The position numbers and the translations under genes are program-made. Below, piece after piece: positions 367-16,682 of a DNA stretch of 18,245 nt. Source of the DNA: Candidatus Hodarchaeum mangrovi (GTDB taxonomy: Archaea > Asgardarchaeota > Heimdallarchaeia > Hodarchaeales > Hodarchaeaceae); NCBI GenBank assembly GCA_016839515.1, contig JAEOUE010000195.1:1-18245 (forward strand), read 5' to 3'. Position 1 is the stretch's first letter. Every line of letters begins with the position of its first letter. The notes under the pieces are model-generated. The model searched no databases, was not told the DNA's origin, and saw nothing but the letters and a program-made list of their open reading frames with translations.

Positions 367-369
367 TTC

Positions 370-1638
370 TTACATCTCCTCATCGGTGATATATCCAGCT
401 ATTGCGGATTTGGCAACCACAGCTGGGTTAGCAAGATAAATCTCTGCCTCCCTTGTTCCCATACGGCCTTTGAAATTACGATTAGCTGTTGAAATTGCTA
501 TCTCACCCGGAGCTAGACATCCACCATATTCACCTAGACAAGGCCCACATGCTGGAACTCCAATTTGCCCTCCTGCTGCAATGAAGATTTCAATTAATCC
601 CTCTTGAGTTGCTTTCATCAAAATATCACGAGATGCTGGGTAAATTAATAACCGAACATTGGGATTTATCTGTTTATCTTTTAATATTTCAGCAGCAACT
701 CGTAAATCTTCTAGGCGACCATTTGTACAGGTTCCAATTAAAGCTGTATCAATGGATACATGAGGTAATCTTTCTATAGGAACAATATTGTCAACAGAAT
801 GAGGTTGTGCTATTTGAGGACTGAGTTCTGCCAGATCAATTAGTATTTCCTGCTCATAAATTGTATCTTCATCAGCTATCATCTTTTTGTATTTAAAACT
901 AAACTGACGAAACCATTCTTCCGTAATTCGGTCAACAGGAAAGATTCCTGCTTTAGCTCCAGCCTCTGCTGTCATATTACAAATTGTCATACGATCCCCT
1001 ATTGACAGTTTTTCAACTACCTTCCCATAGAACTCCATTGATTTATAGGTAGCTCCATCAGCTGAAATCATACCAATTAGATTCAAAATGATATCTTTTG
1101 CATAGACGCCAGCTTTAATTGGTAAATAATTCTCAAATATCACTTTAATCGTTTCAGGGACTTTTAGATATGTTTCCCCAATTGCCCAAACTGAGGCTGT
1201 TTCGGTTCTGCCAATTGGAATCCCTGCAGCACCAAAAGCTCCATGAGTAGTTGTGTGAGAATCTGATCCCAAGATAATAACATTAGGGGGAACTAATCCT
1301 TTTTCAGGAAGAACTTGATGGCATATCCCTGTTCCTGCATCGTAAAAATGTTTGATCTTCTGGATTTTGACAAATTCCCTAATTATTTTATGGTTTTCAG
1401 CTTTTTTTGAGTCTGGTGGTGGAACTGCATGATCTAAAGCAATAAAAATTCTATCTGGATCCCATACTTTGCCGTTGGGCCCAACTATTTCATAAAAAGT
1501 TTTTGAAATAGCAGCTGAATTATCATGACTAAGGATCATATGAGGTGAGGCGAAAATGATTTCATTTTCTTCGACTTCCTCTTTTTTTGCAGCTTTAGCA
1601 AATATTTTCTGGATTAATGATTGAGAAGGCATTTTCAT
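370..1638 (-). CDS. LeuC/HacA-family [4Fe-4S] large subunit, probably homoaconitase
   Basis: Canonical motifs SHDNS, LDHAVP, GICHQV, GSDSHT, GTCTNGR, CGPCLG (three cluster Cys) and STANRNFKGRMG. Directly upstream of its small subunit. Confidence 0.92.
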   Translation of the reverse strand: MKMPSQSLIQKIFAKAAKKEEVEENEIIFASPHMILSHDNSAAISKTFYEIVGPNGKVWDPDRIFIALDHAVPPPDSKKAENHKIIREFVKIQKIKHFYDAGTGICHQVLPEKGLVPPNVIILGSDSHTTTHGAFGAAGIPIGRTETASVWAIGETYLKVPETIKVIFENYLPIKAGVYAKDIILNLIGMISADGATYKSMEFYGKVVEKLSIGDRMTICNMTAEAGAKAGIFPVDRITEEWFRQFSFKYKKMIADEDTIYEQEILIDLAELSPQIAQPHSVDNIVPIERLPHVSIDTALIGTCTNGRLEDLRVAAEILKDKQINPNVRLLIYPASRDILMKATQEGLIEIFIAAGGQIGVPACGPCLGEYGGCLAPGEIAISTANRNFKGRMGTREAEIYLANPAVVAKSAIAGYITDEEM

Positions 1639-1762
1639 GAACCTTTATGACACTATTGATACATAACTTCAAATTCCTTAAGTTATATTTGAGATTTTTT
1701 GCATCGCTTGAAATAAATCTTGTGCAGAAAAGAATTGTTTTTCAGGCGAAACTTTTTTCATC

Positions 1763-1779
1763 GGGAGAGAAATTTAAGT
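1763..1779 (+). promoter_or_regulatory. Putative archaeal BRE/TATA promoter for the second aconitase-family operon
   Basis: Purine-rich GGGAGAGAAA followed by TTTAAGT about 60-75 nt upstream of ATG 1841; GAGGTG RBS just before the ATG. Confidence 0.4.
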
Positions 1780-1840
1780 TCATGGGATATTAGCTATCCT
1801 AAAGCAATAATTTCAGTTTTTACAGAGGATATGAGGTGTT

Positions 1841-3097
1841 ATGAGTAAAACTATTATTGAAAAGATATTAGCAGATCACACTTCCGATAATGTAGCACCA
1901 AGTCAGATTATTTGGTTAAATATTGATGTACGTTCAGCCCGTGATTTTGGAGGAGCGAATGTGGTTAAAAATCTTGAGGAACATTATCCAAAGGAGTCAA
2001 AGATCGCTGATCCTGAAAAAACATTCTTTACATTTGATTGTGTTGTACCTGCCAATAATTTAGGTTATGCAGAAAATCAACAGATTGCACGGATGTTTGC
2101 TAGAAAATACCTTAATCGAAAGAATTTATATGATGTAGATGCTGGGATAGGCTCTCATGTGATGATAGAAAAGGGAATTGCAACACCAAATAGTACTGTT
2201 GTTGGAACTGATTCTCATCTAAATATTTTGGGAGCAATTGGAGCCTTTGGTCAAGGTATGGGAGACCAAGATATTGCATTTACCTTTAAAACAGGAAAAA
2301 CTTGGTTTGAAGTTCCTGAGAGTATGAAAATCACAATTACAGGAGAACCAGCACCAAATTCATATGCTAAGGATATTACTTTAGGCATTCTAGAGCAGAT
2401 CGGGTCGAAAGGAGCTCTAGGGCGATCTATTGAATTCTATGGGTCTACAATAGATTCTCTCAAATTAGCAGGAAGAATTACTCTTGCTTCTATGGTGACC
2501 GAAATGGGGGGAATAATTGGATTGATTGTTCCAAATAATGAAGTAATTAATTATTGTCGTGAACGTGGCAACAAGGAATTTAAAGTACAGAATGCTGATG
2601 CCGACTGTGAGTATTCTCAAAAATTAACCCTCGATTTTTCAGACCTTGAACCTCGAATTGCTCTTCCTCCTTCCCCCTCTAATGTAAAACCTGTTTCTGA
2701 AGTTACCGGTGTTAAAATCGATTCAGTTGTTATTGCTTCATGTACCAATGGACGCTATGAGGATTTTGAGATTGTTGCCAAAATATTGAGAGGAAAAAAG
2801 ATTCATAGAGATGTGATGATGAAAATAGTTCCTGCAACGCAAGAGGTTTATGGTCAATTATTAGAAGCTGGATTAATCAAAATATTTTATGAGGCAGGAG
2901 CTATAATAAGTAATCCAGGTTGCGGAGGATGCGCTTCAGGACAAATAGGTATGACTGGAGCAGGTGAAGTTCAAATTTCTACTGGAAACCGAAATTTTGC
3001 TGGTAAACAAGGAAAAGGAGACACATATCTAACAAGTCCTGCTACTGCAGCAGCTTCTGCGATAAAAGGGGAGATAGTTGTTCCTGGAGTTATATAG
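1841..3097 (+). CDS. Aconitase-superfamily (LeuC-like) large subunit, atypical RDFGG subfamily
   Basis: GTDSH, ASCTNGR, PGCGGC and STGNRNFAGKQG motifs with three cluster Cys retained. Active-site motifs differ from canonical: RD, DC, GIGSHV. Confidence 0.9.
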   Translation: MSKTIIEKILADHTSDNVAPSQIIWLNIDVRSARDFGGANVVKNLEEHYPKESKIADPEKTFFTFDCVVPANNLGYAENQQIARMFARKYLNRKNLYDVDAGIGSHVMIEKGIATPNSTVVGTDSHLNILGAIGAFGQGMGDQDIAFTFKTGKTWFEVPESMKITITGEPAPNSYAKDITLGILEQIGSKGALGRSIEFYGSTIDSLKLAGRITLASMVTEMGGIIGLIVPNNEVINYCRERGNKEFKVQNADADCEYSQKLTLDFSDLEPRIALPPSPSNVKPVSEVTGVKIDSVVIASCTNGRYEDFEIVAKILRGKKIHRDVMMKIVPATQEVYGQLLEAGLIKIFYEAGAIISNPGCGGCASGQIGMTGAGEVQISTGNRNFAGKQGKGDTYLTSPATAAASAIKGEIVVPGVI

Positions 3098-3108
3098 GAG
3101 TTGTTAAG

Positions 3109-3648
3109 ATGACTAAATCAACTATAATTAAAGGTAATGCTATTATTATCAAAGACAGGGATGGAAATGCCATTGATGATATTGATACAGATATGATTTT
3201 TCATAATAAACATTTGCATATCACTAATATAGAAGAAATGGGGAAGTATACGTTCGGAAATCTTCCTGGTTGGGAAAAATTCCCTGAGATAGCTACTAAA
3301 GGTGATATTTTAATAGTTGGGAAAAATTTTGGTGCAGGTTCATCCCGTCAACAAGCTGTCGACTGTTTTACAGCTTTGGGTATCAATCTTATTATCGGAG
3401 AATCATTTGGGGCAATTTATAAACGAAACGCTATCAATTCTGGCATACCACTTATGATTGCTCCTAAAATAATGAATGAATCTCTCAAAACAGGTGATTC
3501 TCTTAAAGTAAATTTAAAAACTGGAGAAATAATAAATCTTACAGTAGATAAGTCATTAGCATTAGCTGAACCTTTATCAAAGGTCCAGATTGATATCTAT
3601 TTAGCTGGAAATCTATTTGCATATGGAAGCAGAATTTTCCAAGGATAA
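3109..3648 (+). CDS. LeuD-like small subunit partnering 1841-3097
   Basis: DIDTDMIFHNKHL, GKNFGAGSSRQQA and SFGAIYKRNAINSG motifs; AGGAG RBS overlapping the upstream stop; 11-nt gap. Confidence 0.9.
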   Translation: MTKSTIIKGNAIIIKDRDGNAIDDIDTDMIFHNKHLHITNIEEMGKYTFGNLPGWEKFPEIATKGDILIVGKNFGAGSSRQQAVDCFTALGINLIIGESFGAIYKRNAINSGIPLMIAPKIMNESLKTGDSLKVNLKTGEIINLTVDKSLALAEPLSKVQIDIYLAGNLFAYGSRIFQG

Positions 3649-3714: not shown

Positions 3715-4212
3715 TTATTCTCTAAATTTTATGATTTGTATATCTATCTCATAGGTCATTTTCTCAATTTCATATTCAACTGTTGAGACAGACATAGTAA
3801 GCGAAATCGCCATTATTAGAATAGTGATTAATATAGTAACAAGTGCAAGAATAAAACTAAACATAATAAGAGAAGATAAATCTAATGTCAAGACTTCTTG
3901 TGAAAGAATACTAATACATGTTACAATCACAAACACTATTGCTGTAAAGGCAAAGATCATTGCATTCTTAACTAGTCTTGTTTCATTCAGATACATATTC
4001 CTGATCTTAGTTACTACTTCTAAATGCTCTTCTGGGGATTCTATACTTTTTAAAATATTATAATAGCGATCATAGAGTAAAGTTCGATCTTTTAGACGCG
4101 CATATCGATTTTGCATCATGAGGAGGACTAATCCTACTGCACTCATCATGACTATAGGTGATAATGTTGCTGTAATTATTTCTAAGGCAAATTCCATTCC
4201 TTTCACCATCAT
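3715..4212 (-). CDS. DUF2721-like small membrane protein (about 3 TM)
   Basis: N-terminal SPIVMMSAVGLVLLMMQNRYARLKDR matches the P..hh...g.ll....NR..R..DR pattern of DUF2721; two further hydrophobic helices follow. Confidence 0.75.
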   Translation of the reverse strand: MMVKGMEFALEIITATLSPIVMMSAVGLVLLMMQNRYARLKDRTLLYDRYYNILKSIESPEEHLEVVTKIRNMYLNETRLVKNAMIFAFTAIVFVIVTCISILSQEVLTLDLSSLIMFSFILALVTILITILIMAISLTMSVSTVEYEIEKMTYEIDIQIIKFRE

Positions 4213-4322
4213 TTTTTAGAATATTTTTGTCTTTTTAATGCACCCCAAATGAATTCTCTCTAAAGTATTTCACAAAAACCTTTAAATATAGATTACGTAA
4301 AAATAAATTCGTTAAACTGATC

Positions 4323-5111
4323 CTATTCTTTAGTTATTTTATTTTCAGAAAATTGAACTGCTTTAATGAATTGGCTCATTAATTCTTTTGGATTATTTGA
4401 CTTTTCAAGGACTGAAGAAACAACTATAATATCCGAACCTGCTTTAACAAGATCAATTATTTGTTCTTGTCTACTTATTCCTCCTCCTGTTATTAAAACA
4501 GCTTTAGGATTTATCTGGTTCATGTAATGTCTAACACGTCCCACAAGATCTAATCGATTGGCGATAGAGCGTTCAAAATTTCCAGATCCTGCCTCAAGAT
4601 ATAATCCCCACCAATATTTTCTCCACTTCCTTTCAACTTCTTCATAAGCCTCATCATCGGTTAGGTTTCTTGCTTTTAACTTTCTTCCAACGGTTGAATC
4701 GGAACTTAATACTAAATAGCCATATTTTCGATCTTTAGGCCAATGGCGTCCGATCAAGCGTCGTGCCCATTTTGATACCCAATGATATTTTTTACCTAAT
4801 TTAACTAACACCTTAATTGTAAATCTAAAAGTATTCAATAACGTTGGCATTTGAATATAGTCTGCGAAAGACGAAATTTGAAGTGGATGCCCTGGAAAAA
4901 TAACTACTGGAGGTAAATCAATATCTAATTGGTGTAAACGTTTTAAATAACCATGAACACCTCGATAGATTTCATGAGAATCCCCTACCCAGATTTCCAA
5001 AGGTAAAAGGGAAGGATCCTTGGTTTCTGTAAGGATCGTTTTCAAAGCATTAAACATACGTTCTGTTGCTTCTCCCTTGTTTGGATCAATCAGGATAGCG
5101 AATTTTGAAAT
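4323..5111 (-). CDS. Geranylgeranylglyceryl/heptaprenylglyceryl phosphate synthase family (GGGPS/PcrB, group II-like), divergent
   Basis: Motifs VVIFPG, ISSFAD, GYLVL, LYLEAGSG and ITGGGI. The frame is open upstream of ATG 5057 and encodes ISKFAILIDPNKGEATER, containing the family's LIDPDK motif. Start placed at ATT 5111, 10 nt after AGGAG (5126-5122); start position is uncertain. Confidence 0.85.
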   Translation of the reverse strand: MSKFAILIDPNKGEATERMFNALKTILTETKDPSLLPLEIWVGDSHEIYRGVHGYLKRLHQLDIDLPPVVIFPGHPLQISSFADYIQMPTLLNTFRFTIKVLVKLGKKYHWVSKWARRLIGRHWPKDRKYGYLVLSSDSTVGRKLKARNLTDDEAYEEVERKWRKYWWGLYLEAGSGNFERSIANRLDLVGRVRHYMNQINPKAVLITGGGISRQEQIIDLVKAGSDIIVVSSVLEKSNNPKELMSQFIKAVQFSENKITKE

Positions 5112-5251
5112 TCTGATTCAACTCCTAAAAAGTATAAATGCTTTTTAACCGATTCTAGCTCAAATCCCCCCCTTCAAATGAAATAATAAAAAGATTGTCA
5201 TTATGTCATCTAATCATTAGGAAAGAACAGGAAAAAGGATTTGAAAAATTT

Positions 5252-5896
5252 TTGCGAAGGAATATTGATTATCACATTCATAGCACTTTTTCAGATGGTG
5301 AATTACATCCTACAGAGATTTTAAAAGCTGCTGAAGGTAAAAATTTGAAAAGCATTTGTATAACAGATCATTTCTCATTGACAAAGCTTGCTCTAAACGA
5401 GGAAGAACTTGATATATATTTTAATACCTTAGAAAATCAAAATAATTCAGCGTTGTCAATCTTTATGGGACTAGAGGTTGATTTATCTTCCATTAAGGAC
5501 TTTATTTCTTTGACAAAGCATTCTTGGGATTTAATTCTCTTTGAATATGTTTTCTTCTGGCCTGATTGGGAAAAAAAACTACATGAAGTAATTAGATTCA
5601 AAAAAGATTATTTTGACTATAATATAGGTCTGGCACATACTAGATTTACCCGACTTCCAGAATCAAGGATAAATTATGTGCTTTCAAAGATTACTAAATA
5701 TGAGATCATTATTGAGCTAAATACAGGGTATAAGAATTATTTGGACCCTTGGTTTGGCTACCTAGATGAAACTTTTCTTTTTTCATTAGGCTCAGATGCG
5801 CATATGGAATATCAACTTGGAGAAGTTACAGCTGCATGGACTTACCTTGAGTCTAGGGAAATTCCTTCAACTTGTGTTATAGATCTAAAAAAATAA
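5252..5896 (+). CDS. PHP-domain metallo-phosphoesterase (histidinol-phosphatase/YcdX-like)
   Basis: DYHIHSTFSDG, ITDH, GLEVD, LAH, IELN and LGSDAH motifs. ORF is open from 5195; TTG 5252, just before the first motif, is the more likely start. Confidence 0.88.
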   Translation: MRRNIDYHIHSTFSDGELHPTEILKAAEGKNLKSICITDHFSLTKLALNEEELDIYFNTLENQNNSALSIFMGLEVDLSSIKDFISLTKHSWDLILFEYVFFWPDWEKKLHEVIRFKKDYFDYNIGLAHTRFTRLPESRINYVLSKITKYEIIIELNTGYKNYLDPWFGYLDETFLFSLGSDAHMEYQLGEVTAAWTYLESREIPSTCVIDLKK

Positions 5897-5926
5897 AAGA
5901 AAAGAACATAATCTTTATTCATTTCT

Positions 5927-5948
5927 TAAATAAAGGATAAATAAAGGA
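5927..5948. repeat. Perfect 11-bp tandem duplication (TAAATAAAGGA x2)
   Basis: Read directly at 5927-5937 and 5938-5948 in the PHP-DHH spacer. Confidence 0.7.
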
Positions 5949-5969
5949 TTAAAATGGTTTGAAAAGACT

Positions 5970-7025
5970 TTGAAAGAATTTCACATTATTCAGAATATTT
6001 TAGCAGATATACCTGATGATTTAATGCGAGAAAACATCCAATTCATTCATTCATTAGCTTTAATTCCTAAAGAAAAAATAGCTTTTCATGCAGCAGATGC
6101 AGATGGAATTATTTCAGCTGCGATCCTAAAATCATTGCCTAAATATCGTGAAGCCGTTTTTGTTCCTTTACATTATTCTCAATTAAAACATCCCGAATAT
6201 GGTGCTTTTTTAAGTGGATTAAATTGGCTCGCAATAGTAGATCTGCCACCATTTAATAATCATACCCTCGAGCTATATTGTGATCACCATATTTCAAATA
6301 TTTCTACAATAAAAAACGCCTCTCTGGTTTTATTTAATCACGAGGCTCCAAGTGCAGCGAGTATTTTATTATCTTACTTTGATAAGTCTTTAGACATACT
6401 AAACGACCTCAGATTATTAGCTAACTTGACTGAGATTACTGACACATATGGATATACTACTTCTCCACCAATTAACCTTCCTGCTCGATTTTTGGAGTCC
6501 TCAAAGGAGGAACAAGCATGGTTACTGGATGACCTATGCCGCTCTTTAGATTCTACAATAGAAATTCTAGCATTAGTGGAGGGTTTTGTTTGTAATGGAA
6601 CACAAATTTTTGAACAAGAAATATATCTAAATAAAATAAGGTCTTTACGAAAGAGACGTGAAAAGGCAAAAGAAGCTAGTAATAAAATACCAGTAAAGGA
6701 TGCTATAATCATAATTCAAGGTAAGGAAAAAGTGCAATCACCTACTCTAATCCACTATTTATTTGAAAAAGGGGTCAAATTTACCTGTCTATTATACCCT
6801 GGAAAACGTTTCGTGGGTGTATCATTAAGACTTGGACCATTAATTCCAGATGAAAGCCTAAATAAATATCGTGTTGATAAAATTGCCGAGATATTTGAGG
6901 GTGGAGGGCATCCGCGCGCTGCAGGGGGACGAGGGAGTAACCTCGAAAAAACTCTTGATATCATAATTCATTACATGAATAAAAATAAATTCTCTTATGA
7001 TATAGTAGATTTTAGGGAGAAATAA
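5970..7025 (+). CDS. DHH/DHHA1-family phosphoesterase (NrnA/RecJ-like fold)
   Basis: H..DADGIISA (motif I), IVDLP, CDHH, PSAASIL and C-terminal GGGHPRAAGG. Confidence 0.9.
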   Translation: MKEFHIIQNILADIPDDLMRENIQFIHSLALIPKEKIAFHAADADGIISAAILKSLPKYREAVFVPLHYSQLKHPEYGAFLSGLNWLAIVDLPPFNNHTLELYCDHHISNISTIKNASLVLFNHEAPSAASILLSYFDKSLDILNDLRLLANLTEITDTYGYTTSPPINLPARFLESSKEEQAWLLDDLCRSLDSTIEILALVEGFVCNGTQIFEQEIYLNKIRSLRKRREKAKEASNKIPVKDAIIIIQGKEKVQSPTLIHYLFEKGVKFTCLLYPGKRFVGVSLRLGPLIPDESLNKYRVDKIAEIFEGGGHPRAAGGRGSNLEKTLDIIIHYMNKNKFSYDIVDFREK

Positions 7026-7543: not shown

Positions 7544-8308
7544 TTGGTATTTAAAGTGAATCTTCAGAATAAGAATTTTTCAAAAAATCAAACGCGATTG
7601 CATCAGCAACTAAAAGAAATTTATCGTAACGAGCTGAATGGTCAGGAAGAAGTAACTTTAACTATCGATGATTCTGTTTATCGTGTTGATGTTATTAGTC
7701 AAGATAATTCTATAGTATGTGAAATCCATCGGTCAAATTTTGACAAACGATTCTCAAAGAAAATTCAAGCTTTGCTTTCAATCCCCAAAATATATTTAAT
7801 TATCGTATGTCCGCTTGTATCTGCACAAAAAGTGTTTCGAATGGATAAAGAGAGCGTAATTAACACTAGTTACTATAAAAAACCTTATGCACTATATTCT
7901 CTTTTTGATCTGCTAGTGAGAATAAAAACTCCATTAATAGAAAATCGAATGGAATTTCGTGTTCATCTAATATCCGAAATTGTAACAAAGCAGTTTCAAG
8001 GATTTTTTGGTCGAACACTCCGAAGAAGATACAAGACCGTTGATCGTGAATTAAATTCAATTGAAAAAACACGAGTTTTTAAGAACCGAAATGACTTTAT
8101 TGAACTACTTCCTTCTAATCTTCCTCCTAAATTTACAAGAAAAGAGTTAGGGCAGGCGCTAAGACTTCCTAAAATTTCAGAGAGGTCTGTTCAACGATTA
8201 GCTGGAAGGATGACATACTCCCTATGGAGACTAGGAATACTTGAGCGAATTGGTAAGCAAAAACAGGCATATTTATATGAATATTCTACTATTAAAAGAG
8301 ATAATTAG
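7544..8308 (+). CDS. Putative PD-(D/E)xK restriction-endonuclease-like protein with C-terminal winged helix
   Basis: LHQQLKEIY..EEV....YRVDV....IVCEIH core resembles the H-E-D-ExK/Q nuclease layout; C-terminal LPPKFTRKELGQAL...YSLWRLGILERIGKQKQAYLY fits a wHTH. Confidence 0.6.
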   Translation: MVFKVNLQNKNFSKNQTRLHQQLKEIYRNELNGQEEVTLTIDDSVYRVDVISQDNSIVCEIHRSNFDKRFSKKIQALLSIPKIYLIIVCPLVSAQKVFRMDKESVINTSYYKKPYALYSLFDLLVRIKTPLIENRMEFRVHLISEIVTKQFQGFFGRTLRRRYKTVDRELNSIEKTRVFKNRNDFIELLPSNLPPKFTRKELGQALRLPKISERSVQRLAGRMTYSLWRLGILERIGKQKQAYLYEYSTIKRDN

Positions 8309-8500
8309 AAAATTCTGGGCATTTAACTTAATTTAAAGGATTATAGCTATTCAGGATCATATTCTATCACTTCTTATCATAGGAACTGACACTCTAATAC
8401 TAATAAATATAAATCTGAATATTACAAGGATGATTTAAGGAATTATTCTCTTCTATATTTATAAAAATAAAATTCTTTTTAAAAAACAACATCGAAAAAA

Positions 8501-8527
8501 ATAATCCATTAATTAGAACTGGATTAT
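8501..8527. promoter_or_regulatory. Perfect 8-11-8 inverted repeat, candidate transcription-factor site
   Basis: ATAATCCA-ttaattagaac-TGGATTAT, 58 nt upstream of ATG 8586. Confidence 0.45.
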
Positions 8528-8585
8528 CAAAAATTTTAATTCATTTGGAAATATTAAATAAACTAGGTTGCAGAATTTGAGTTAA

Positions 8586-9689
8586 ATGTCTAGTTTAAAT
8601 GCAATGCAATATACTTTAATTGCATTCCTTTCTGTAATTCTCACTTTAATTGGATTAATTTTATCTTTTCGGGTCTATTACAAAGGAAAATCAAAACCCT
8701 TATGGTATCTTATAATTATTCATCTTTTACTCCTCCCATTCTTCCTTTCTCACAGCCTTCTTTATCTAATTGGTTTGGAACAGAAATTAATTATGACTTT
8801 AATATTTCAATTAACAATTATTCTCTTATGTTTAATATTATTCTTTCTGATATTCTTTATAGAATCATTGCGGGTTGAATCACCTTCAAATTACATTATT
8901 CTTTTTGCTGCATTAGGGGTTGGTAATGGGATATTACTGACATTGTTTCCTGAGACTTTAGAATGGGATGAACTTATCGGTCCATACTTATCTGATTTTA
9001 GTAGAATTATTTTTGCCATAGACCTATTATTAGCTGCAATAATAATCAGCTGGCAAATTTATCAATTTATTCCATTTATCCGATCTGAATATCGCAAATC
9101 ATCAATTTTACTCTTTTCAGGTTGTTTATTACCAATCCTTGGTCCAATGGTAATCATCAGTACAAAACTTTCTTTGGTTTTTTGGGGTTCAGAGTTAATC
9201 CCTATTCCAATTGGTATTCTAATGATGATAATTTCAATAGTGATCGATGACCGAGTTCTCAGAATGGTACCTTTTAATGTATATCGCCTTTCAGTAATGA
9301 ATATGAACATAGGCCTTTCTATTTTCGACATATTATTTGATGCAAAAAAAAGTGGCCCAGATAGCAATACTCTTATACCTCATTTGATGACCGCAAACCT
9401 TCAATTTGTCCAAAGTGTTATTTCTTCAACTGAAAGAATCCAATTCATCCGTACCGATAATTTTATCTTCATATTTGAGGCACTTAATGATGTTGTATGT
9501 TTTGTAATCGCTGATAGAGCATCTATGTTAATTAAGTCAGCATTGAAGGAATTTACTCGTGAATTTGTAAAAGAATTTGGTTTAATTCTTGATTCATGTG
9601 ACATAAGCCATTTTGCTGATGCAGAAAGAATTGTCAAGAAATATTTTTCATTTTTACCATCATCCCGCGTAGTATCTTTTTGTCCCTAA
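8586..9689 (+). CDS. Seven-transmembrane protein fused to a C-terminal longin/roadblock-like domain
   Basis: Seven hydrophobic segments in residues about 8-220, then a soluble beta-beta-alpha-beta-beta-beta-alpha-alpha pattern (VYRLSVMNMNIGLSIF / LMTANLQFVQSV / IQFIRTDNFIFIF / VVCFVIAD / LKEFTREFVKEF / F..AERIVKKYF) typical of Asgard longin-like domains. Confidence 0.7.
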   Translation: MSSLNAMQYTLIAFLSVILTLIGLILSFRVYYKGKSKPLWYLIIIHLLLLPFFLSHSLLYLIGLEQKLIMTLIFQLTIILLCLILFFLIFFIESLRVESPSNYIILFAALGVGNGILLTLFPETLEWDELIGPYLSDFSRIIFAIDLLLAAIIISWQIYQFIPFIRSEYRKSSILLFSGCLLPILGPMVIISTKLSLVFWGSELIPIPIGILMMIISIVIDDRVLRMVPFNVYRLSVMNMNIGLSIFDILFDAKKSGPDSNTLIPHLMTANLQFVQSVISSTERIQFIRTDNFIFIFEALNDVVCFVIADRASMLIKSALKEFTREFVKEFGLILDSCDISHFADAERIVKKYFSFLPSSRVVSFCP

Positions 9690-9745: not shown

Positions 9746-10333
9746 ATGGTGGCACAAATGAAAAAAGTTTTAGTAGCCTATTCGAGTCGTTTTGGAAGTA
9801 CAGAGGAAATTGCTATTGATATTGTTGAAACATTAGAAGATGAAGGAATTGAAGTTAAATTACTAAACCTAAGGAAGATTACCCAAATTCCAGATATTAC
9901 TATTTATGATGGGATTTTAGTAGGCAGTGGAATTATGCAAGGAGAATGGACAGAAGAATCATTAGCTTTTTTGAAACAATATCGTGAAACACTTAATAAA
10001 ACAGTTTTAGGTTTGTTTGTGAGCTCTGGAGAAGCAGCCAATCCTAAACTTTATTTTGATGCTCGAAATAAATATTTAAAACGATTGGTTGAAAAATTTG
10101 AGTTCACAAACGATCCTGAAATAGAAGCTTTTGGAGGCGTATTTGATCTTTCTCCCAATTCAATTCATAGTGAGCAGGAAAAGAAAATTCTAAAACAAAT
10201 TATTCTCTCAGATACCACTGGATTTATTGTAAATGATGGAAAATTATCAGACTTTCGAAATTGGCAAAAAATCCGAGATTGGACTCGTTTTTTTGCTCGA
10301 AAAGTAATAGCAACCGAAGATAAATTATTATGA
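9746..10333 (+). CDS. Flavodoxin-domain protein (Flavodoxin_5/HemG-like)
   Basis: KVLVAYSSRFGSTEEIA FMN-phosphate loop, YDGILVGSGI, FGG and C-terminal DFRNWQKIRDW. Alternative start ATG 9758 after GGTGG. Confidence 0.88.
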   Translation: MVAQMKKVLVAYSSRFGSTEEIAIDIVETLEDEGIEVKLLNLRKITQIPDITIYDGILVGSGIMQGEWTEESLAFLKQYRETLNKTVLGLFVSSGEAANPKLYFDARNKYLKRLVEKFEFTNDPEIEAFGGVFDLSPNSIHSEQEKKILKQIILSDTTGFIVNDGKLSDFRNWQKIRDWTRFFARKVIATEDKLL

Positions 10334-10355
10334 ACTAATTAGTGAGAATTGGTTA

Positions 10356-10772
10356 TTACATATCTGTTTTATTTGTTAAATTCAAGGTATTTGGAAATAC
10401 TTCTTTAAAAATAGTATTTTCTACAGGCGACAAAAGAGTCCATTTTCCTTCACGATCTTTTAAAATCAGTCCTCCTTCTTCTAGCAAGTTTAAGTGATGA
10501 GATACTGTTGCTTGTCCTAATTTAGTCAAAAATTCTAGTTCACAGGGGCATTTAATGCCATTATTTATAGCTAACAAAATAAGAACTCGTGCAGGATGAT
10601 TAAGTGCTTTAATAAATTTCTGAAATTGTTTGAACTGAACTTTTTTTTGGCTTTGTTCTAATTTAAGTTTCAGATCATTTAAAAAGTCCATTCTATCCTC
10701 TATTGACTTCCAATTCACTACATTCATTTCTAGAAGTTCGTTTAGTTTTCTTTCTAATTCAGATAGACGCAT
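10356..10772 (-). CDS. arsR: ArsR/SmtB-family metalloregulator
   Basis: FIKALNHPARVLIL, alpha3 metal site KCPCEL (ELCVCDL-like), QATVSHHLNLLEEGGLI...REGKW; located in an arsenic gene cluster. Confidence 0.88.
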   Translation of the reverse strand: MRLSELERKLNELLEMNVVNWKSIEDRMDFLNDLKLKLEQSQKKVQFKQFQKFIKALNHPARVLILLAINNGIKCPCELEFLTKLGQATVSHHLNLLEEGGLILKDREGKWTLLSPVENTIFKEVFPNTLNLTNKTDM

Positions 10773-10829
10773 ATTGTTTACCTTGACTTAAATCTATATC
10801 ATTTATGTAAATATATTTTATTTAAGTAT

Positions 10830-11510
10830 CTAAATAATGATTAACCAGATTGAGATTCCATCAATCAGAATAAAAAAACCTAACACTATTAAAATTATCG
10901 ATAAGATTTTTTGGATTATCATACCATATTTAACCCATTTGGCAAGGGTGACTGATTTTATTTGAATTCCGAAAGTTCCCATTATTATATAAGGCAATCC
11001 AAGACCAAGAGCATATATAAATAGTAAGATATAGCCCCAAAGAAATTCTTGGTTTATTGAAATCATAGCTAATATGACTGTTAAGATAGGAGTTAAGCAA
11101 GGAATCCAAGCTATTCCTGAGACAATCCCAAACATTAATAATCCTAAGATGTGAAAATTTGATGTCAAATGCGAAAAAATGCTCATTCTAGAGAATTTTG
11201 AAGTAAAGAAATCGCGATTAATGACTAAATAGCTCCCGATACTTATAATGATGATTCCTGCAATAACACGAAACAAAGGGAAATAGTAGAAAGATTCAGG
11301 AATAATCTGTAATAACAAATTATAAATAGAAAATGAGATTGATAATCCTAATGTATACATAATGCCTCCTATTAACCCTTTTTTAATATTAGATTCATCA
11401 TTGGCTAGTATATAGGATAAATAGACTGGAATTAAAATCAGATGACAAGGTCCTAAAAATGAGACTATTCCACCTAAGAAACTCAAAAATAGGTAGATTG
11501 GATCAATCAC
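10830..11510 (-). CDS. ccdA: CcdA/DsbD-family transmembrane thiol-disulfide electron transporter (possibly ArsG-like)
   Basis: About 6 TM segments; both conserved Pro-Cys motifs present (SFLGPCHLILIP, WIPCLTPIL) plus YALGLGLPY. GTG start overlaps the upstream gene's stop. Confidence 0.85.
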   Translation of the reverse strand: MIDPIYLFLSFLGGIVSFLGPCHLILIPVYLSYILANDESNIKKGLIGGIMYTLGLSISFSIYNLLLQIIPESFYYFPLFRVIAGIIIISIGSYLVINRDFFTSKFSRMSIFSHLTSNFHILGLLMFGIVSGIAWIPCLTPILTVILAMISINQEFLWGYILLFIYALGLGLPYIIMGTFGIQIKSVTLAKWVKYGMIIQKILSIILIVLGFFILIDGISIWLIII

Positions 11511-11850
11511 TAGCTGTACAATCCTCTTTAGGGGTAATTATTGGCTCAATATCAGTTATAATTTTATTTCTTAGAATTTTTTGTCGGGATAATGTGATCT
11601 TAGTAATCCTTGGATAATATTCAAAGATCTTTGGATCAAATAAGATATTTGAGTAAGAATTTATGCTTATATAATCAGTAACTGATTCATCTTTCTTATT
11701 TAGATCAGAAATTTTTATTATTTTTACTATTGGTTCCACTAGGAGAGAGCAACAACTTGGTGTAACCTTTAAAGTAATAATAATCAAAACATTCTTTGCA
11801 ACTAGCCCTTTCGTAAAGTCATCTTTTAGATCAATGATAAGATTTTTCAA
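11503..11850 (-). CDS. Small CC-motif protein (resembles the HesB-like CC/Se-motif family)
   Basis: 115 aa; IIITLKVTPSCCSLLVEPIVKI places a vicinal Cys pair in a beta hairpin followed by P-x-V. Translationally coupled to ccdA. Both Cys codons are TGT/TGC, with no Sec. Confidence 0.6.
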   Translation of the reverse strand: MKNLIIDLKDDFTKGLVAKNVLIIITLKVTPSCCSLLVEPIVKIIKISDLNKKDESVTDYISINSYSNILFDPKIFEYYPRITKITLSRQKILRNKIITDIEPIITPKEDCTASD

Positions 11851-11860
11851 GTTAAGACAC

Positions 11861-12532
11861 TCATTTAAAAAATTTCTTTTTAAAATGCAGGAAAATAATT
11901 CCTAAAGAGACTCCAAAGGGAGATAGAGTAATGGTTATATTCTGAGGTGAAGTTGAATCACGAAATGTAGGTATTAGAGCTAAAGTATAATTTAATAAAT
12001 TCTCGTTATATTTAATAGGATTATAGACTTTTATTGTAAGAGCGATACCATCAATTGAAAAGTTTATTGTTACTCGCTGATTATTGAAGTAATAATCTAC
12101 AATAAATGAATTTATGTCTTCCTTATCTAAAGAAAAATTCCCCCACCCTCCATGAGACAATTGGTAGGTGATTTCCTTATACGCACTACAACAGCTCCGA
12201 AATACTTTACTCGGGATAAAAAATGGAGGGAGGTTTAAAGGATCTAGTTGCTCACTGATTGTTGAAACATAATAATAACCGTTACCTGTACACCCATATT
12301 CAACCTCATTTGGTAATTTTTCAATTGTTATCTGAAGAGAATCATTAATTTTCATCCAAGATGGTCCTGAAATACCTAATTCAGTGATATTATATCTCAA
12401 TTCTCCTCCATTTTTTATTAAATCCGACCACACAACATAATAAGGGATTGAGGTTGAATTACAACTAGCATTACACAAAGTTAACCCTAAAATAAACCAA
12501 AATGTTGAAGAAAACAGAATTAATTTTTTCAT
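11861..12532 (-). CDS. Exported, C-terminally anchored surface (glyco)protein with a vicinal Cys pair
   Basis: Signal peptide MKKLILFSSTFWFILGLTLC; eight N-x-S/T sequons; GCTG and RSCCS motifs; S/T linker, then hydrophobic segment and basic tail (LSPFGVSLGIIFLHFKKKFFK). Confidence 0.72.
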   Translation of the reverse strand: MKKLILFSSTFWFILGLTLCNASCNSTSIPYYVVWSDLIKNGGELRYNITELGISGPSWMKINDSLQITIEKLPNEVEYGCTGNGYYYVSTISEQLDPLNLPPFFIPSKVFRSCCSAYKEITYQLSHGGWGNFSLDKEDINSFIVDYYFNNQRVTINFSIDGIALTIKVYNPIKYNENLLNYTLALIPTFRDSTSPQNITITLSPFGVSLGIIFLHFKKKFFK

Positions 12533-12542
12533 ATTGATAGGT

Positions 12543-12589
12543 TTCGATTTATCGAATTGTTTAAAAACATATCGAAGATTATCGATATG
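12543..12589. promoter_or_regulatory. Bidirectional promoter/operator of the arsenic island
   Basis: TTCGAT-tt-ATCGAA (12543-12556), TATA-like TTTAAAAA (12560-12567) and perfect CATATCGA-agatta-TCGATATG (12568-12589), between divergent starts 12532 and 12603. Confidence 0.7.
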
Positions 12590-12602
12590 GAGACATTCGG
12601 AT

Positions 12603-13943
12603 ATGGAGAAAGTCCTCGAATTAATCCTAGGTGCTATAGAAAGTGCATTTATTACATTATTAGATTATCTTTCATTGCATGTTCTTTTATGTTTAATACC
12701 TGCATTTTTTATCGCTGGTGCAATGGCATATTTTATCCCAAAGGACTTAATTATGAAATATATAGGAGAAAATGCCGATCCAAAAATTTCTTATCCGATG
12801 GCTACTGCTGGAGGATTTTTACTTGCAGTATGTAGCTGTACAGTCCTTCCTTTATTTGTTGGGATATGGAAACGGGGAGCTGGATTAGGCCCTGCAATAA
12901 CGTTTTTATTTGTGGCTCCTGCTATTAATATTCTTGCTTTAACATATACAGGGACTTTAATAGGACTAGATATTGCTATTGCCAGAGGAATATTAGCAAT
13001 AGTGTTTGCCCTTCTAATTGGATTTTTAATGTCTAAACTATTCGGGAATATTACAGGAGAGATATCTAAGTCTTTAGAGACTTCTTCTTTACCTGATAAT
13101 GATTCTTCTGATGTCCATATTAATACATTATCTATGGTGTTAATTATCATTTTAATTATAGTGTCAGTATCATTAGCAGTATTTACAACTGATTTTATAA
13201 TGTCCATTACTGAAAATTATCCAATTTTTCAAGTAATATTACACTCTCCTTCTTTTTTTCAATCATTGCTATTCTTGATAGGAGTGATAGTTTTACTTGT
13301 ACTAAGCTTTAGATTATCAAGGGAATTAGTACTTTTTTTATGGTTAATTTACATATTAATGACTGGCACTTCTCAAATAACTTATTTTAAAGAGCCCATG
13401 ACTATTTTTATGTTCATAATTCCCCCTAGTTTTATGAATATGGGGTCAAAACTAATTTTATCTCTAAGCTTAATTTTAATTCTACTCTTTTACTTGAAAA
13501 ATAATTTCGAGAAAGATGAACTAAAAGCATGGATGCAGGAAACTTGGTTTTTTGTAAGGTCTATTTTTCCATTAATCATTATTGGTGTTACTTTAGCTGG
13601 CTTTGTAAAGTTCTTTATTCCTCAAGAGATCATTGCATCACTTGTTGGTCAAAATACAATATTCTCTAATTTAATTGCCGTTCTTTTCGGAGTTTTTGCC
13701 TACTTTCCAACACTAATGGAAGTTCCAATAGCTAGAATCTTTTTAGACTTTGGGATGGCTCGTGGACCGTTATTAGCTTATCTCCTTGCAGATCCCGAGC
13801 TTTCAATTCAAAGCATCCTTGTCACACGAAAATTTTTAGGAGATCAAAAAAACCTTGTATTTATTGGACTAGTAATCGTGTTTACTGTCTTTGCAGGATT
13901 ACTATTTGGGGGTATTATTAATGAGGGAATAAGACTTATTTAA
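12603..13943 (+). CDS. arsP: ArsP/DUF318-family permease (organoarsenical efflux-like)
   Basis: LCLIPAFFIAGA, LAVCSCTVLPLF, GPAITFLFVAPAIN, TLMEVPI and GPLLAYLLADPELS. ATG 12603 has a GGAG RBS (12589-12592); the track's TTG 12534 start would cover the promoter. Confidence 0.85.
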   Translation: MEKVLELILGAIESAFITLLDYLSLHVLLCLIPAFFIAGAMAYFIPKDLIMKYIGENADPKISYPMATAGGFLLAVCSCTVLPLFVGIWKRGAGLGPAITFLFVAPAINILALTYTGTLIGLDIAIARGILAIVFALLIGFLMSKLFGNITGEISKSLETSSLPDNDSSDVHINTLSMVLIIILIIVSVSLAVFTTDFIMSITENYPIFQVILHSPSFFQSLLFLIGVIVLLVLSFRLSRELVLFLWLIYILMTGTSQITYFKEPMTIFMFIIPPSFMNMGSKLILSLSLILILLFYLKNNFEKDELKAWMQETWFFVRSIFPLIIIGVTLAGFVKFFIPQEIIASLVGQNTIFSNLIAVLFGVFAYFPTLMEVPIARIFLDFGMARGPLLAYLLADPELSIQSILVTRKFLGDQKNLVFIGLVIVFTVFAGLLFGGIINEGIRLI

Positions 13944-14003
13944 AAAAGAAATGGAAATAAACCGTACAAAGAATTAAAAAAATAATAGAAAATAGAATGT
14001 TAC

Positions 14004-15071
14004 ATGGAGGATTCAACAATTTCAGAAAACTTGGCTTCAGACAAAAAGATTTCATTTCTAGATAAAATGTTACCAATCTTCATTTTAATAGCCATGATAA
14101 TAGGCTTATTTATTGGTCGAATGGTTCCAGATATCCAAGATATCTTTAATGCTGTCCAAATTGATACCGTATCTCTTCCGATTGCAATTGGATTACTATG
14201 GATGATGTATCCTGTTTTGGCAAAGGTACAATATGAAAAAATTCCTCAAGCATTGCAAGAGTATCGCCTTTTTGGAACATCTTTAATCCAAAATTGGATA
14301 ATAGGACCAATTTTTATGACAGGGCTCGCTTGGTTATTTTTAGCAGACTATCCTGGATATCGTGAGGGTATTATACTTGTAGGGTTAGCCCGTTGTATTG
14401 CAATGGTTTTAATTTGGAATATGTTGGCAGGAGGAGATGCTGAAAAATGTGCTATCCTGGTTGCTTTGAATAGTGTTTTCCAAATCTTTTTCTATGCCAT
14501 TTATGCATGGATTTTTATTGGAATAACTAACATTGACATTTTTGATATCGCTCGGAGTGTTTTTATCTTCTTAGGAATACCTTTATTTGCAGGATTTCTA
14601 ACACGGGAAATTCTTAGAAGGAAAAAGGGAAATCAATGGTATTCTGATATATTTATTCCTAAACTCGGACCAACAGCTATTGTTGGGTTATTATTTACTG
14701 TAATTGCCATGTTTTCTATGCAAGGAGAAAAAATACTGAGCCAACCACTGGATATCTTGATTATTGCTATTCCTCTCTTTATTTACTTCATCGGGATGTT
14801 CCTAATAAGCTTTCTAATTTCATTTGCATTAAAATTCAAATACTCTGAAACAGTTACCCTATCGTTTACAGCAGCATCAAATAATTTTGAGCTAGCTATT
14901 GCTGTTGCTATTGCCACATTTGGAATCGATTCAAATCAGGCGTTAGCTACTGTAGTTGGGCCTTTAATCGAGGTACCCGTATTATTATTATTGGTGTACA
15001 TAGCTCTTTGGCTAAAACAATATCTTTTCAAAAATGAATTCCAAAGAACGGAGCCAAATCATGTTTCTTGA
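14004..15071 (+). CDS. acr3: ACR3-family arsenite efflux transporter
   Basis: GLLWMMYPVLAKV, QNWIIGP, GLARCIAMVLIWN (essential Cys), ASNNFELAIAVA and VGPLIEVPVL. Confidence 0.96.
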   Translation: MEDSTISENLASDKKISFLDKMLPIFILIAMIIGLFIGRMVPDIQDIFNAVQIDTVSLPIAIGLLWMMYPVLAKVQYEKIPQALQEYRLFGTSLIQNWIIGPIFMTGLAWLFLADYPGYREGIILVGLARCIAMVLIWNMLAGGDAEKCAILVALNSVFQIFFYAIYAWIFIGITNIDIFDIARSVFIFLGIPLFAGFLTREILRRKKGNQWYSDIFIPKLGPTAIVGLLFTVIAMFSMQGEKILSQPLDILIIAIPLFIYFIGMFLISFLISFALKFKYSETVTLSFTAASNNFELAIAVAIATFGIDSNQALATVVGPLIEVPVLLLLVYIALWLKQYLFKNEFQRTEPNHVS

Positions 15072-15116
15072 AGATATTAGATGAAATTTATATTAAAAAA
15101 CGGAGGTTTATTCGAT

Positions 15117-15365
15117 ATGACAAGAGTTTTAGAAGTTTTCGGACCAGGTTGTACAAAATGTAAAGCGCTAAAGAAAAGTACTGAAGAAGCAGTCGATAAA
15201 TTAGGCTGGCAAGATGTAAAAATACTTTATAATACTAATATGGCGGAAGCAATCCAAAAGGGAATTACTGCAACCCCAGCATTAGCTTTTGATGGAAAAA
15301 TAATCCTATCTGGTCAGTATCTTCCTGCAGATAAACTTGTACAACTGCTTAAAGAAAATAAATGA
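15117..15365 (+). CDS. Small thioredoxin-like redox protein (MTH895/Thioredoxin_3, ArsE-like)
   Basis: LEVFGPGCTKC (CxxC) and ITATPALAFDG (cis-Pro); strong GGAGG RBS at 15102-15106 before ATG 15117. ORF is open from 15081. Confidence 0.88.
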   Translation: MTRVLEVFGPGCTKCKALKKSTEEAVDKLGWQDVKILYNTNMAEAIQKGITATPALAFDGKIILSGQYLPADKLVQLLKENK

Positions 15366-15374
15366 GATTAAAGA

Positions 15375-15623
15375 ATGAGAAGCCCAAAAGTTGAAGTATT
15401 TTCTCCCGTAGGAGTTTGTAGTTGCTCATTTGCTGTATGGATCGGAAATGTTTGGGACATTTTAATGAAGTACAAAGATCAGCTTGAGATTGTGAGTTTG
15501 ACTTCAGATTCTCCTCGAGCACAAGAACTTGGAGTGGGTGATCGAGCCGTTGTAATCAACGGAGAAACCACTCCAGTATTCTTACTTGAGCAAAAAATCC
15601 AAGAACTCCTTAAAAAGCGTTGA
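15375..15623 (+). CDS. Small thioredoxin-fold protein with CxC motif (ArsD-like position)
   Basis: KVEVFSPVGVCSCS after the first strand, AQELGV and AVVING; last gene of the arsP-acr3 unit with a 9-nt gap. Confidence 0.65.
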   Translation: MRSPKVEVFSPVGVCSCSFAVWIGNVWDILMKYKDQLEIVSLTSDSPRAQELGVGDRAVVINGETTPVFLLEQKIQELLKKR

Positions 15624-15809: not shown

Positions 15810-16682
15810 ATGAAGTTAGAAAATAAAAATACTCAACAAAAATTATGTATTATATGCGGAGCCAAATGCTGCAAACCCAACTTAGTAAAAGATCCATTCA
15901 ATTTAAATTTGCTTCCAGGAGACTTTACTAAACTCCTTAAAAAGAACTTCCATGTTATGATCGGAACAGGGATTGATGAGCGAAATAATCTCTCGCTTAC
16001 TATTAAACCACACATATTTGGTTATTGCATTTTCTTAAACTATTTTACAAATCAATGTCAGATTTATTCAACTAGACCACAGATTTGTCGACGATTTCCT
16101 TTTGATTCGAGTATTAATTCCTCTGTGAAAGGACAATGTTTAATTTTAACCACTATTTCTCTTGAAAAACTTAATCAAATAGAAAATAAGATTATAATAA
16201 AGGACAATTCAAAAGAGAATCTAAATTTAATGAAAATTAAAGATGAAGAAGATTCATTAATATATCAAGATGAGTATGTTCCTCAAGTTGAATCCTATTT
16301 CTCCACTAAATCTTATATTCAATCAAAATATGGATCCTTTTTTATCTCTCATAATGAATCTTTTCAATATGACCTTTTTAATCAATTAACAGCTCTTTTA
16401 GAGAATTATCGAATATTTTTCAATCATATAAAAGTTATCCTATCTATCGGAATTGTTAATAGTTCCAATTATCCGCTTTTATTTATAGAAGGTATTCTTG
16501 ACCCAATTAACCAATATTCGCAGAAGAGAATATTTCAGGAGATTGAAAAAAAGGGGAACTATTATCTTTCTCAAATTGATGGATCTTACCTTGAAGGTTT
16601 AATATATTATGATGAAATATTTGAAGATCCAAGCCACTGGCATAGTTGCTGGGAAGAAAGCAGAAAAAATTTTAGAAAATAA
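15810..16682 (+). CDS. YkgJ/CxxCxxCC zinc- or iron-chelating domain protein with uncharacterised C-terminal domain
   Basis: CIICGAKCC, YCIFL and CQIYSTRPQICRRFPF motifs. Confidence 0.85.
   Translation: MKLENKNTQQKLCIICGAKCCKPNLVKDPFNLNLLPGDFTKLLKKNFHVMIGTGIDERNNLSLTIKPHIFGYCIFLNYFTNQCQIYSTRPQICRRFPFDSSINSSVKGQCLILTTISLEKLNQIENKIIIKDNSKENLNLMKIKDEEDSLIYQDEYVPQVESYFSTKSYIQSKYGSFFISHNESFQYDLFNQLTALLENYRIFFNHIKVILSIGIVNSSNYPLLFIEGILDPINQYSQKRIFQEIEKKGNYYLSQIDGSYLEGLIYYDEIFEDPSHWHSCWEESRKNFRK

Follow-up and report, generated by a model that had tools for sequence, protein, structure and literature searches.

Among the known prokaryotes, Asgard archaea are the nearest relatives of eukaryotes, and they abound in sediments rich in arsenic. 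This paper deals with a divergent arsenic-resistance (ars) locus of one of them, Candidatus Hodarchaeum mangrovi, at positions 10356-15623 of an 18,245-nucleotide stretch of DNA (contig JAEOUE010000195.1, forward strand), which was analysed as a whole and is called the window. The locus consists of eight open reading frames (ORFs) in two divergent arms, which encode an ArsR-type repressor, the permeases ArsP and Acr3, a small thioredoxin, an 82-residue protein with a CxC motif, a CcdA-type membrane protein and two proteins with vicinal cysteines. In the part of PMC10060404 that concerns Asgard lineages, arsenic genes are catalogued by marker genes only; acr3, arsP and arsM are reported and arsC1 and arsC2 are lacking.

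The closest described arrangement is bacterial. Section 3.9 of PMC2963123 lists eight instances, in seven organisms, of ars operons that contain CcdA, a thioredoxin and a "redox-active disulfide protein 2", seven of them together with arsC. Its authors proposed that these proteins support arsenate reductase and doubted the need for transmembrane electron flow. No other paper combining CcdA, an ars operon and a thioredoxin was found in the literature search. ArsP proteins, as characterized in PMC4435449, contain a transmembrane C(S/T)C motif and form two clusters, and the coexistence of ArsP and Acr3 is common there (24 of 49 ArsP proteins). In the account given by PMC9144182, ArsG is an efflux transporter, and ArsE and ArsF are determinants of organoarsenical resistance. 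The small protein TsoX of the Tso system is described in PMC13188914 as having a UxxC redox motif.

The eight genes of the window had originally been predicted, from the sequence, to form a single island. Comparison with 12 related loci resolves them instead into a widely conserved five-gene core and a rare three-gene insert. The core is very probably an arsenic-resistance operon under ArsR control, and its type is conserved among Asgard archaea. The best explanation of the locus as a whole is that of a two-layer structure under ArsR control, in which a rare transmembrane thiol-relay module is added to the core; we consider the chances that this description is right in its entirety to be about even.

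Composition of the locus

All eight ORFs of the original prediction were recovered with exactly the same boundaries. The right arm is transcribed from the forward strand and begins with arsP (12603-13943), which encodes an ArsP_1 permease of 446 residues if translation starts at the likely ATG at 12603 (the ORF opens with a TTG at 12534) and which matches PF03773 with an E-value of 3.8e-70. It is followed by acr3 (14004-15071), encoding an arsenite efflux permease of 355 residues (TIGR00832, E 1.5e-124, 415.6 bits against a cut-off of 282.8), by the gene for a small thioredoxin of the MTH895/ArsE type (15081-15365, with a conserved Met at 15117; TIGR00412, 65 bits against 62) and by the gene for the 82-residue CxC protein (15375-15623), which has no family match above cut-off. 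The left arm is transcribed from the reverse strand. Its genes, in the order of transcription, encode a 223-residue surface protein (11861-12532), a 115-residue soluble protein with a TTG start (11503-11850), a DsbD_TM/CcdA-type membrane thiol-disulfide transporter of 226 residues with a GTG start (ccdA, 10830-11510; PF02683, E 8e-15, 55.2 bits against 27.1) and, as the final gene, the 138-residue ArsR/SmtB repressor (arsR, 10356-10772; HTH_5, E 7.9e-12; NF033788, 56.6 bits against 55). Five of the eight proteins thus exceed curated family cut-offs, and the 223-, 115- and 82-residue proteins belong to no Pfam or NCBIfam family. The three genes preceding arsR are tightly packed, with a gap of 10 nucleotides between the first two and an overlap of 8 nucleotides between the second and ccdA. 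The window is AT-rich (G+C content about 29-39%).

A Pfam scan of the window's 22 main ORFs, five of which have no family, gave no match to the ArsC, LMWP, ArsA, ArsM or ArsH families, which bears out the earlier statement that arsC, arsA, arsM and arsH are absent. A nitroreductase-type gene is likewise not present among these ORFs.

Cysteine motifs had been noted in all eight proteins. They are indeed present, and the paired cysteines are invariant in every aligned homologue. In ArsR the motif is C75-P-C77, part of C75-x-C77-E-L-E, with C75 and C77 invariant in eight of eight sequences; its position is presumably that of the C-V-C motif of the R773 ArsR. The two cysteines of CcdA, C22 and C138, each follow a proline, and both P21-C22 and P137-C138 are invariant (4/4 sequences). 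The vicinal pairs are S-C33-C34-S in the 115-residue protein, with CC conserved in the window copy and in the only other sequence, that of locus L007, and S-C114-C115-S in the 223-residue protein, with C114-C115 invariant in all seven sequences. The right arm has C77-S-C79 in the membrane motif of ArsP, C131 in Acr3, C24-TK-C27 in the thioredoxin (CxxC invariant in 13 of 13) and C15-S-C17 in the 82-residue protein (C15-x-C17 invariant in 29 of 29). The cysteine content of the cluster is not enriched (1.25%, compared with 1.31% outside it). Close pairs, with zero to two intervening residues, occur in six of the eight cluster proteins and in four of the 14 other proteins of the window.

The conserved five-gene core

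The 12 related loci (L001-L012) were retrieved with an alignment of the 82-residue CxC family, and the presence of the CxC gene in them is therefore by construction. They come from metagenome-assembled genomes of Hod-, Heimdall-, Thor-, Hermod- and Promethearchaeota, and their genes were counted by BLASTP of the window proteins against every ORF of at least 50 residues. A scan for loci seeded with CcdA found no relative. The thioredoxin gene lies immediately 5' of the CxC gene in all 12 loci. Upstream of this pair, arsP is also found in all 12; it is full-length in seven, cut by the contig end in four and reduced to an 81-residue remnant in one (L011). The gene for Acr3 stands between arsP and the thioredoxin gene in eight loci and is not found there in L002, L004, L005 and L007. 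A divergent arsR is present in seven loci. Identities between window proteins and core homologues are 58-85%; the window ArsP shares about 60% identity with the permeases of the seven full-length loci, Acr3 is 79-84% identical to the in-cluster copies, and ArsR is 51-57% identical to the seven divergent repressors. Judged by this gene order and similarity, the conserved unit is a core of five genes, in which arsR is divergent from arsP-acr3-trx-cxc.

Two sequence elements of the window ArsP, HVLLCLIPAFFIAG and LAV-CSC, match the motifs given for "cluster 1" ArsP proteins in PMC4435449. Against NCBIfam, the permease gives weak matches, below cut-off, to SaoE and to the Cu/Zn efflux family SO_0444. 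The Campylobacter ArsP, whose function has been tested, belongs to the other cluster. A permease that is 56% identical to the window ArsP, nearly as close as the Asgard copies, is encoded on a plasmid of the Chloroflexota bacterium Leptolinea sp. HRD-7 (AP024711.1; locus L013, at 4255-6335 of that locus). The similarity of this value to the approximately 60% between the window ArsP and the Asgard copies hints that this permease may have been exchanged between domains.

The thioredoxin is similar to MTH895 of known structure (PDB 1ILO, E 4.4e-9). The 82-residue CxC protein had been thought to have a thioredoxin fold. This label has been dropped, since a profile comparison with the MTH895-type family (hhalign) gave a probability of 2.5%, with no detectable relation. 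The family has 29 relatives with 64-84% identity, and all the named ones are from Asgard archaea. Its invariant residues are E7, P11, C15, C17, S18, W22, W27, D45 and R48. A search of PDB sequences gave chance-level matches only. Weak full-length similarity was found to the selenoprotein TsoX (NF045809), with an E-value of at most 0.1 in 23 of 29 members and 5.4e-4 at best; the window protein scores 17.2 bits against a curated cut-off of 52, and its motif is S-P-x-G-x-C-x-C, not HSGNPxU/UxxC.

The genes around the core vary from locus to locus. In L011, arsP is represented by a C-terminal remnant of 81 residues (8394-8639) that abuts a GH92 glycosidase gene; acr3, the thioredoxin gene and the CxC gene are intact, and arsR was not found in this locus. 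In L001, a gene on the same strand (4111-5607), 29 nucleotides 3' of the CxC gene, encodes a membrane-anchored protein of 498 residues without a Pfam family. It has three internal repeats, each with a conserved cysteine, and a C-terminal CxxC, and is another cysteine-bearing surface protein on the core. A conserved protein of 86-90 residues with two hydrophobic segments and no family is encoded after the CxC gene in L011 (10443-10703) and L012 (3085-3357). L002 and L007 belong to one metagenome-assembled genome (Heimdallarchaeota B3_Heim), in which L002 is a second copy of the core. Downstream of the core, L002 contains at 10570-12514 an ORF of 81 residues whose match to the LMWP (ArsC-type) family (1.4e-11) covers the first half of that family, beside a distant Acr3 (32% identity) and a gene for an ArsR-like protein of 177 residues. 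This ORF may be an ArsC-type gene, or the remnant of one, in an Asgard genome, in contrast with the survey cited above.

The divergent control region

The two arms are separated by a promoter/operator region of 70 nucleotides (12533-12602, not assigned to a strand), which had been proposed to contain a palindromic operator common to both arms. The region does contain two palindromes, and their half-sites are conserved in the related loci. The first palindrome, TTCGAT-TT-ATCGAA, is at 12543-12556. It is followed by an A/T-rich, TATA-like block, TTTAAAAA, at 12560-12567, and by the second palindrome, CATATCGA-N6-TCGATATG, at 12568-12589. The motif TCGATNNATCGA occurs once in the window, compared with 0.02 occurrences expected, and at least one match was seen in four of 200 shuffled sequences. 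TCGAT/ATCGA half-sites in a near-identical block of 45 nucleotides are found in the intergenic region between arsR and arsP of L001-L004, L006 and L007. Five or more half-sites within 60 nucleotides occur only in this intergenic region, in L001-L004, in L007 and in the window.

From its position, the A/T block would be a TATA element that serves both arms. Each palindrome lies between this predicted element and the start of one arm, a placement that would suit a repressor, and a single repressor could thus shut both arms. A direct repeat of 15 nucleotides (GATATGGAGACATTC / GATATGGAGAAAGTC) is also found in this region, at 12584-12614, with a spacing of 16 nucleotides; the first of its copies runs into the right operator palindrome, and the arsP start codon falls within the second.

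The three-gene module and its linkage to the operon

The genes for the 223-residue protein, the 115-residue protein and CcdA form the rare insert. Homologues of all three occur together in only one of the related loci, L007, where the identities are 31%, 30% and 50%, respectively, and the gene order is kept. The 115-residue homologue is encoded at 10135-10452 of that locus (28-30% identity) and the CcdA homologue at 10455-11135. The position of the module relative to the core differs: in the window it separates the operator from arsR, and in L007 it follows the CxC gene on the same strand, after a spacer of 203 nucleotides. This spacer contains a palindrome, TCGATACATCGA (TCGAT-N2-ATCGA), about 80 nucleotides upstream of the first module gene. 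TCGATACATCGA has two matches in L007, of which this is the second, compared with 0.02 expected, a number reached in none of 200 shuffled sequences.

A different CcdA, a DsbD_TM protein of 290 residues, is found beside the core in L003 and L006. Its gene is followed by that of a 218-residue protein with a basic N-terminus, one transmembrane segment and a thioredoxin-like domain with a C-E-P-C motif, which by these predicted features is a classical membrane-anchored acceptor of the TlpA/ResA type. In L003 the CcdA gene starts 112 nucleotides past the CxC gene; in L006 the pair lies upstream of arsR and ends about 600 nucleotides from it. Profile searches of all ORFs of at least 50 residues in the 12 loci, which together span about 170 kb, detected DsbD_TM genes in L003, L006 and L007 and in no other locus, and all of them are within about 2.6 kb of the core.

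The window CcdA is of the six-transmembrane type, with several transmembrane segments recognizable by hydropathy. No ResB, ResC or Ccm genes were found near CcdA among the 22 ORFs of the window or among the scanned ORFs of L007, L003 and L006, a scan for cytochrome c maturation genes that covered 80 of the 136 non-core ORFs of the loci. The relatives of this CcdA on bacterial plasmids lie in heavy-metal islands, together with ArsR/SmtB regulators, Cd transporters and copper chaperones.

The recurrence of the module in L007, together with the different CcdA in L003 and L006, makes the linkage of CcdA to the operon look non-random. The question of synteny that the original prediction had raised for the left-arm genes thus has a divided answer: the genes do recur in the same order beside an ars core in L007, and another CcdA accompanies the core in L003 and L006, but the module itself is absent from 11 of the 12 loci. 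A functional tie between the module and the operon appears reasonably probable.

A module unrelated to arsenic, that is, a general cassette for extracytoplasmic disulfide reduction or surface-protein maturation that is a chance neighbour of the ars core, would account for this absence. It would also agree with the generic nature of the CcdA family and with the variability of the genes adjacent to the core (the 498-residue protein in L001, the small two-transmembrane protein in L011 and L012 and the second ars cluster in L002). Against it speak the two different arrangements linked to the core, both with an operator-type palindrome before the module, the proximity of all three DsbD_TM genes to the core and the position of the window arsR, which must be expressed through or behind the insert. 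Chance neighbourhood is considered unlikely.

The distribution of the genes also bears on the core. A thioredoxin and a CxC protein are encoded beside arsP in all 12 loci, and CcdA in three of them; as far as can be judged from these counts, the primary role of the two small proteins is something other than feeding CcdA.

The two proteins with vicinal cysteines

At its N-terminus the 223-residue protein has a hydrophobic signal or anchor, and at its C-terminus a transmembrane segment followed by a basic tail. It contains eight N-x-S/T sequons and is predicted to be a glycosylated surface protein. Its family shares the motif FR-x-CC-xx-YK-xxx-YQL. Five relatives were found with phmmer among 1.84 billion representative sequences (E 1e-15 to 8e-19), and the nearest atlas clusters are Asgard hypothetical proteins (scores 0.94-0.95). 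The AlphaFold2 model is beta-rich, with a mean predicted local distance difference test score (pLDDT) of 76 and values of 80-94 in the ectodomain. It weakly matches half-barrels of the LolA type (best E 1.1e-3, TM-score 0.3-0.4). Word-index searches with this protein and with the 115-residue protein returned only the queries themselves. Three giant proteins, P0038-P0040, were set aside as irrelevant to the surface protein; they match it in 6-12 short stretches, and none of the three has a CC pair.

The 115-residue protein has no signal peptide. Its only relative found is the L007 copy, with which it shares the motif LK-T-SCCS-VEP. No Pfam match was obtained at E-values up to 10, and the PDB sequence search gave chance-level matches only. 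In the AlphaFold2 model (pLDDT 66) the CC pair is at the tip of a beta-hairpin. IscA, DsrR and SufA are among the top Foldseek matches of this model (E 0.37-1.4), the best being IscA 1r94 (E 0.37, TM-score 0.35-0.39); the L007 copy gives a non-significant ErpA-related match (E 0.008) that the window copy does not give; and the atlas scores to the CC_Se_fam, DUF779 and Fe-S_biosyn clusters are weak (0.77-0.79). On these three leads, of which none reaches significance, the protein is possibly of the HesB/IscA-like or "CC/Se" type.

A possible mechanism

In the favoured description of a core with an added thiol-relay module, As(III) would bind to Cys75 and Cys77 of ArsR, and the repressor would leave the TTCGAT/ATCGAA operator. 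Acr3 would then export arsenite, and the ArsP-type permease would export a second arsenical, probably an organic trivalent one. The MTH895-type thioredoxin and the 82-residue CxC protein would supply cytoplasmic thiol chemistry for the permease side. As the module is inserted between the operator and arsR, it should be controlled by the same repressor as the core. CcdA would move reducing equivalents outward from a cytoplasmic dithiol donor, which may be the 115-residue CC protein or a thioredoxin, and would keep Cys114-Cys115 of the glycosylated surface protein reduced. Once reduced, the surface protein could bind trivalent arsenicals or withstand attack by them. We infer that arsenic induces the genes, in which direction electrons flow, which protein is the donor and that the surface protein binds arsenicals. 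The route that would begin at a cytoplasmic dithiol, pass through CcdA and end at the surface CC pair, with arsenical binding or protection outside the cell, is put forward tentatively and is somewhat doubtful.

Several observations weigh against a relay module tied to the operon. The module is found in just two of 13 places, the window and L007, and the linkage hence rests on one independent rearrangement. Nine of the 12 loci have the thioredoxin and the CxC protein without CcdA, although L005, L009, L010 and L012 are too short to judge. Upstream of its CcdA gene, L003 lacks the operator motif and L006 has a single half-site. The bacterial plasmid relatives of the window CcdA, which share about 30% identity with it, carry annotations as proteins of cytochrome c biogenesis; in one case ResB and TlpA are encoded alongside. 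The direct partners and acceptors of CcdA that are known to us are thioredoxin-like, and neither the family searches (Pfam and NCBIfam) nor the structure matches found a thioredoxin family or fold for the 223-residue protein. The role of the 115-residue protein is a guess from the three weak leads given above.

The conserved cysteine pairs on both sides of the membrane and within it also suggest a different chemistry. The module could be a Mer-like chain that hands over metal(loid) thiolates rather than electrons: the surface CC pair would capture a thiophilic species, for instance As(III), MAs(III), Sb(III), Hg or Cd, and pass it to the membrane cysteines of CcdA and then to the cytoplasmic CC pair, or the chain would run in reverse as an export route. 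MerT and MerF use vicinal CC pairs to bind Hg(II), as ArsD does for As(III), neither CC protein of the module is thioredoxin-like, and the occurrence of the plasmid CcdA relatives in heavy-metal islands points the same way. On the other hand, import of arsenic beside two exporters would be futile, the pairing of CcdA with a CxxC TlpA-like acceptor in L003 and L006 points to redox chemistry, and we know of no DsbD_TM/CcdA protein that carries metal ions. We regard such a chain as rather improbable.

Similarly improbable is a wider proposal, that of a thiol toolkit specific to Asgard archaea, which lack ArsC according to the survey cited above. The thioredoxin and the CxC protein would form a new cytoplasmic pair that handles arsenic, serving as a reductase or as a chaperone of ArsP or Acr3. 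In some lineages the CcdA relay, with vicinal-dithiol proteins on either side of the membrane, would extend this chemistry to an extracellular station that binds or reduces arsenicals and has no described counterpart.

It is very improbable that the thiol proteins (the thioredoxin, the CxC protein and, where present, CcdA) are an arsenate-reducing system that replaces ArsC. In its favour, the window has no arsC among its 22 main ORFs, PMC10060404 describes Asgard lineages with acr3, arsP and arsM and without arsC1 or arsC2, and in the CxC protein Arg48 and Asp45 are invariant in addition to C15 and C17. Against it, seven of the eight bacterial cases in section 3.9 of PMC2963123 keep arsC in the operon, where the redox genes thus did not take its place, and the authors of that section considered that a cytoplasmic reductase does not need electrons to flow across the membrane. 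In searches at E-values up to 10, the CxC protein showed no similarity to the ArsC, LMWP or Spx families. The LMWP-family ORF of L002, beside a second acr3/arsR pair, also indicates that an ArsC-type gene may be present in one Asgard genome at least.

What is defined here is a conserved Asgard ars operon with its operator, a small CxC family that always accompanies the operon, and a rare add-on. If the relay reading of the add-on is true, the module is an inducible extracellular arm of arsenic defence, and CcdA gains an acceptor that is not thioredoxin-like. If it is false, the locus is an ordinary ars operon with an adjoining redox cassette.

Neighbouring genes

Two flanking genes were considered as members of the cluster and rejected. 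The HemG/flavodoxin_5-like gene at 9746-10333, convergent with arsR, has no homologue in the 12 related loci, and the same holds (0/12) for the gene of a 290-residue protein with a CxxCxxCC domain at 15810-16682, which starts 186 nucleotides past the CxC gene. The first part of the window (1-3648) encodes two pairs of aconitase-family subunits, each of a large and a small one and divergent in orientation, probably paralogues of isopropylmalate or homoaconitate dehydratase. The ORFs at 7544-8308 (254 residues) and 8586-9689 (367 residues) match no Pfam family at E-values of 0.001 or below. Other genes of the window encode a PcrB-family protein, an aldehyde:ferredoxin oxidoreductase and further housekeeping proteins.

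Comparison with known systems

The core resembles arsR-arsP-acr3 operons, and the trio of regulator, thioredoxin and permease built from PF03773 and TIGR00412 proteins, in its ArsR-type regulator, its ArsP_1 permease with a C(S/T)C motif, its Acr3 and its small MTH895-type thioredoxin. The Leptolinea plasmid likewise has a regulator, a "redox-active disulfide protein 2" and the permease that is 56% identical to the window ArsP, but it is without the 82-residue CxC gene, which the Asgard core adds. The NCBIfam name of TIGR00412 is "MTH895/ArsE family", and the window thioredoxin is thus ArsE-like, a feature shared with the ArsEFG system of Shewanella putrefaciens; the window has no nitroreductase-type gene.

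The Tso system, consisting of TsoR, the rhodanese/DsbD fusion protein TsoB and the 82-residue TsoX, is similar in having an ArsR/SmtB regulator, a DsbD-type membrane domain and a small redox protein of 82 residues. The window CcdA has a match of 3e-9 to the DsbD portion of TsoB, yet with 35.5 bits against a cut-off of 805, and the window has neither selenocysteine nor a rhodanese domain.

With the CcdA-ResA/TlpA/StoA pathways the locus shares a CcdA with two P-C cysteines beside an exported or anchored cysteine protein, and in L003 and L006 the classical pair of CcdA and a TlpA-like CxxC protein is present. In the window and in L007, in contrast, the neighbour is not thioredoxin-like and has CC in place of CxxC. 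There is also translational coupling of CcdA to a second CC protein, which is cytoplasmic, and there are no cytochrome c maturation genes nearby.

The bacterial operons of PMC2963123 are alike in combining a CcdA-type membrane protein, a "redox-active disulfide protein 2" of the TIGR00412 type and another small thiol protein. They are bacterial and mostly contain arsC, whereas the window is archaeal and has none. The third redox gene of the window is that of the CxC protein, which has a probability of 2.5% in the hhalign comparison with the MTH895-type family, and the window CcdA is coupled to two family-less vicinal-CC proteins, one at the surface and one soluble, which section 3.9 of that paper does not mention. 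An ars operon with a CcdA redox arm is therefore already known as a kind; what is new in the Asgard locus is the CxC family and the two vicinal-CC proteins.

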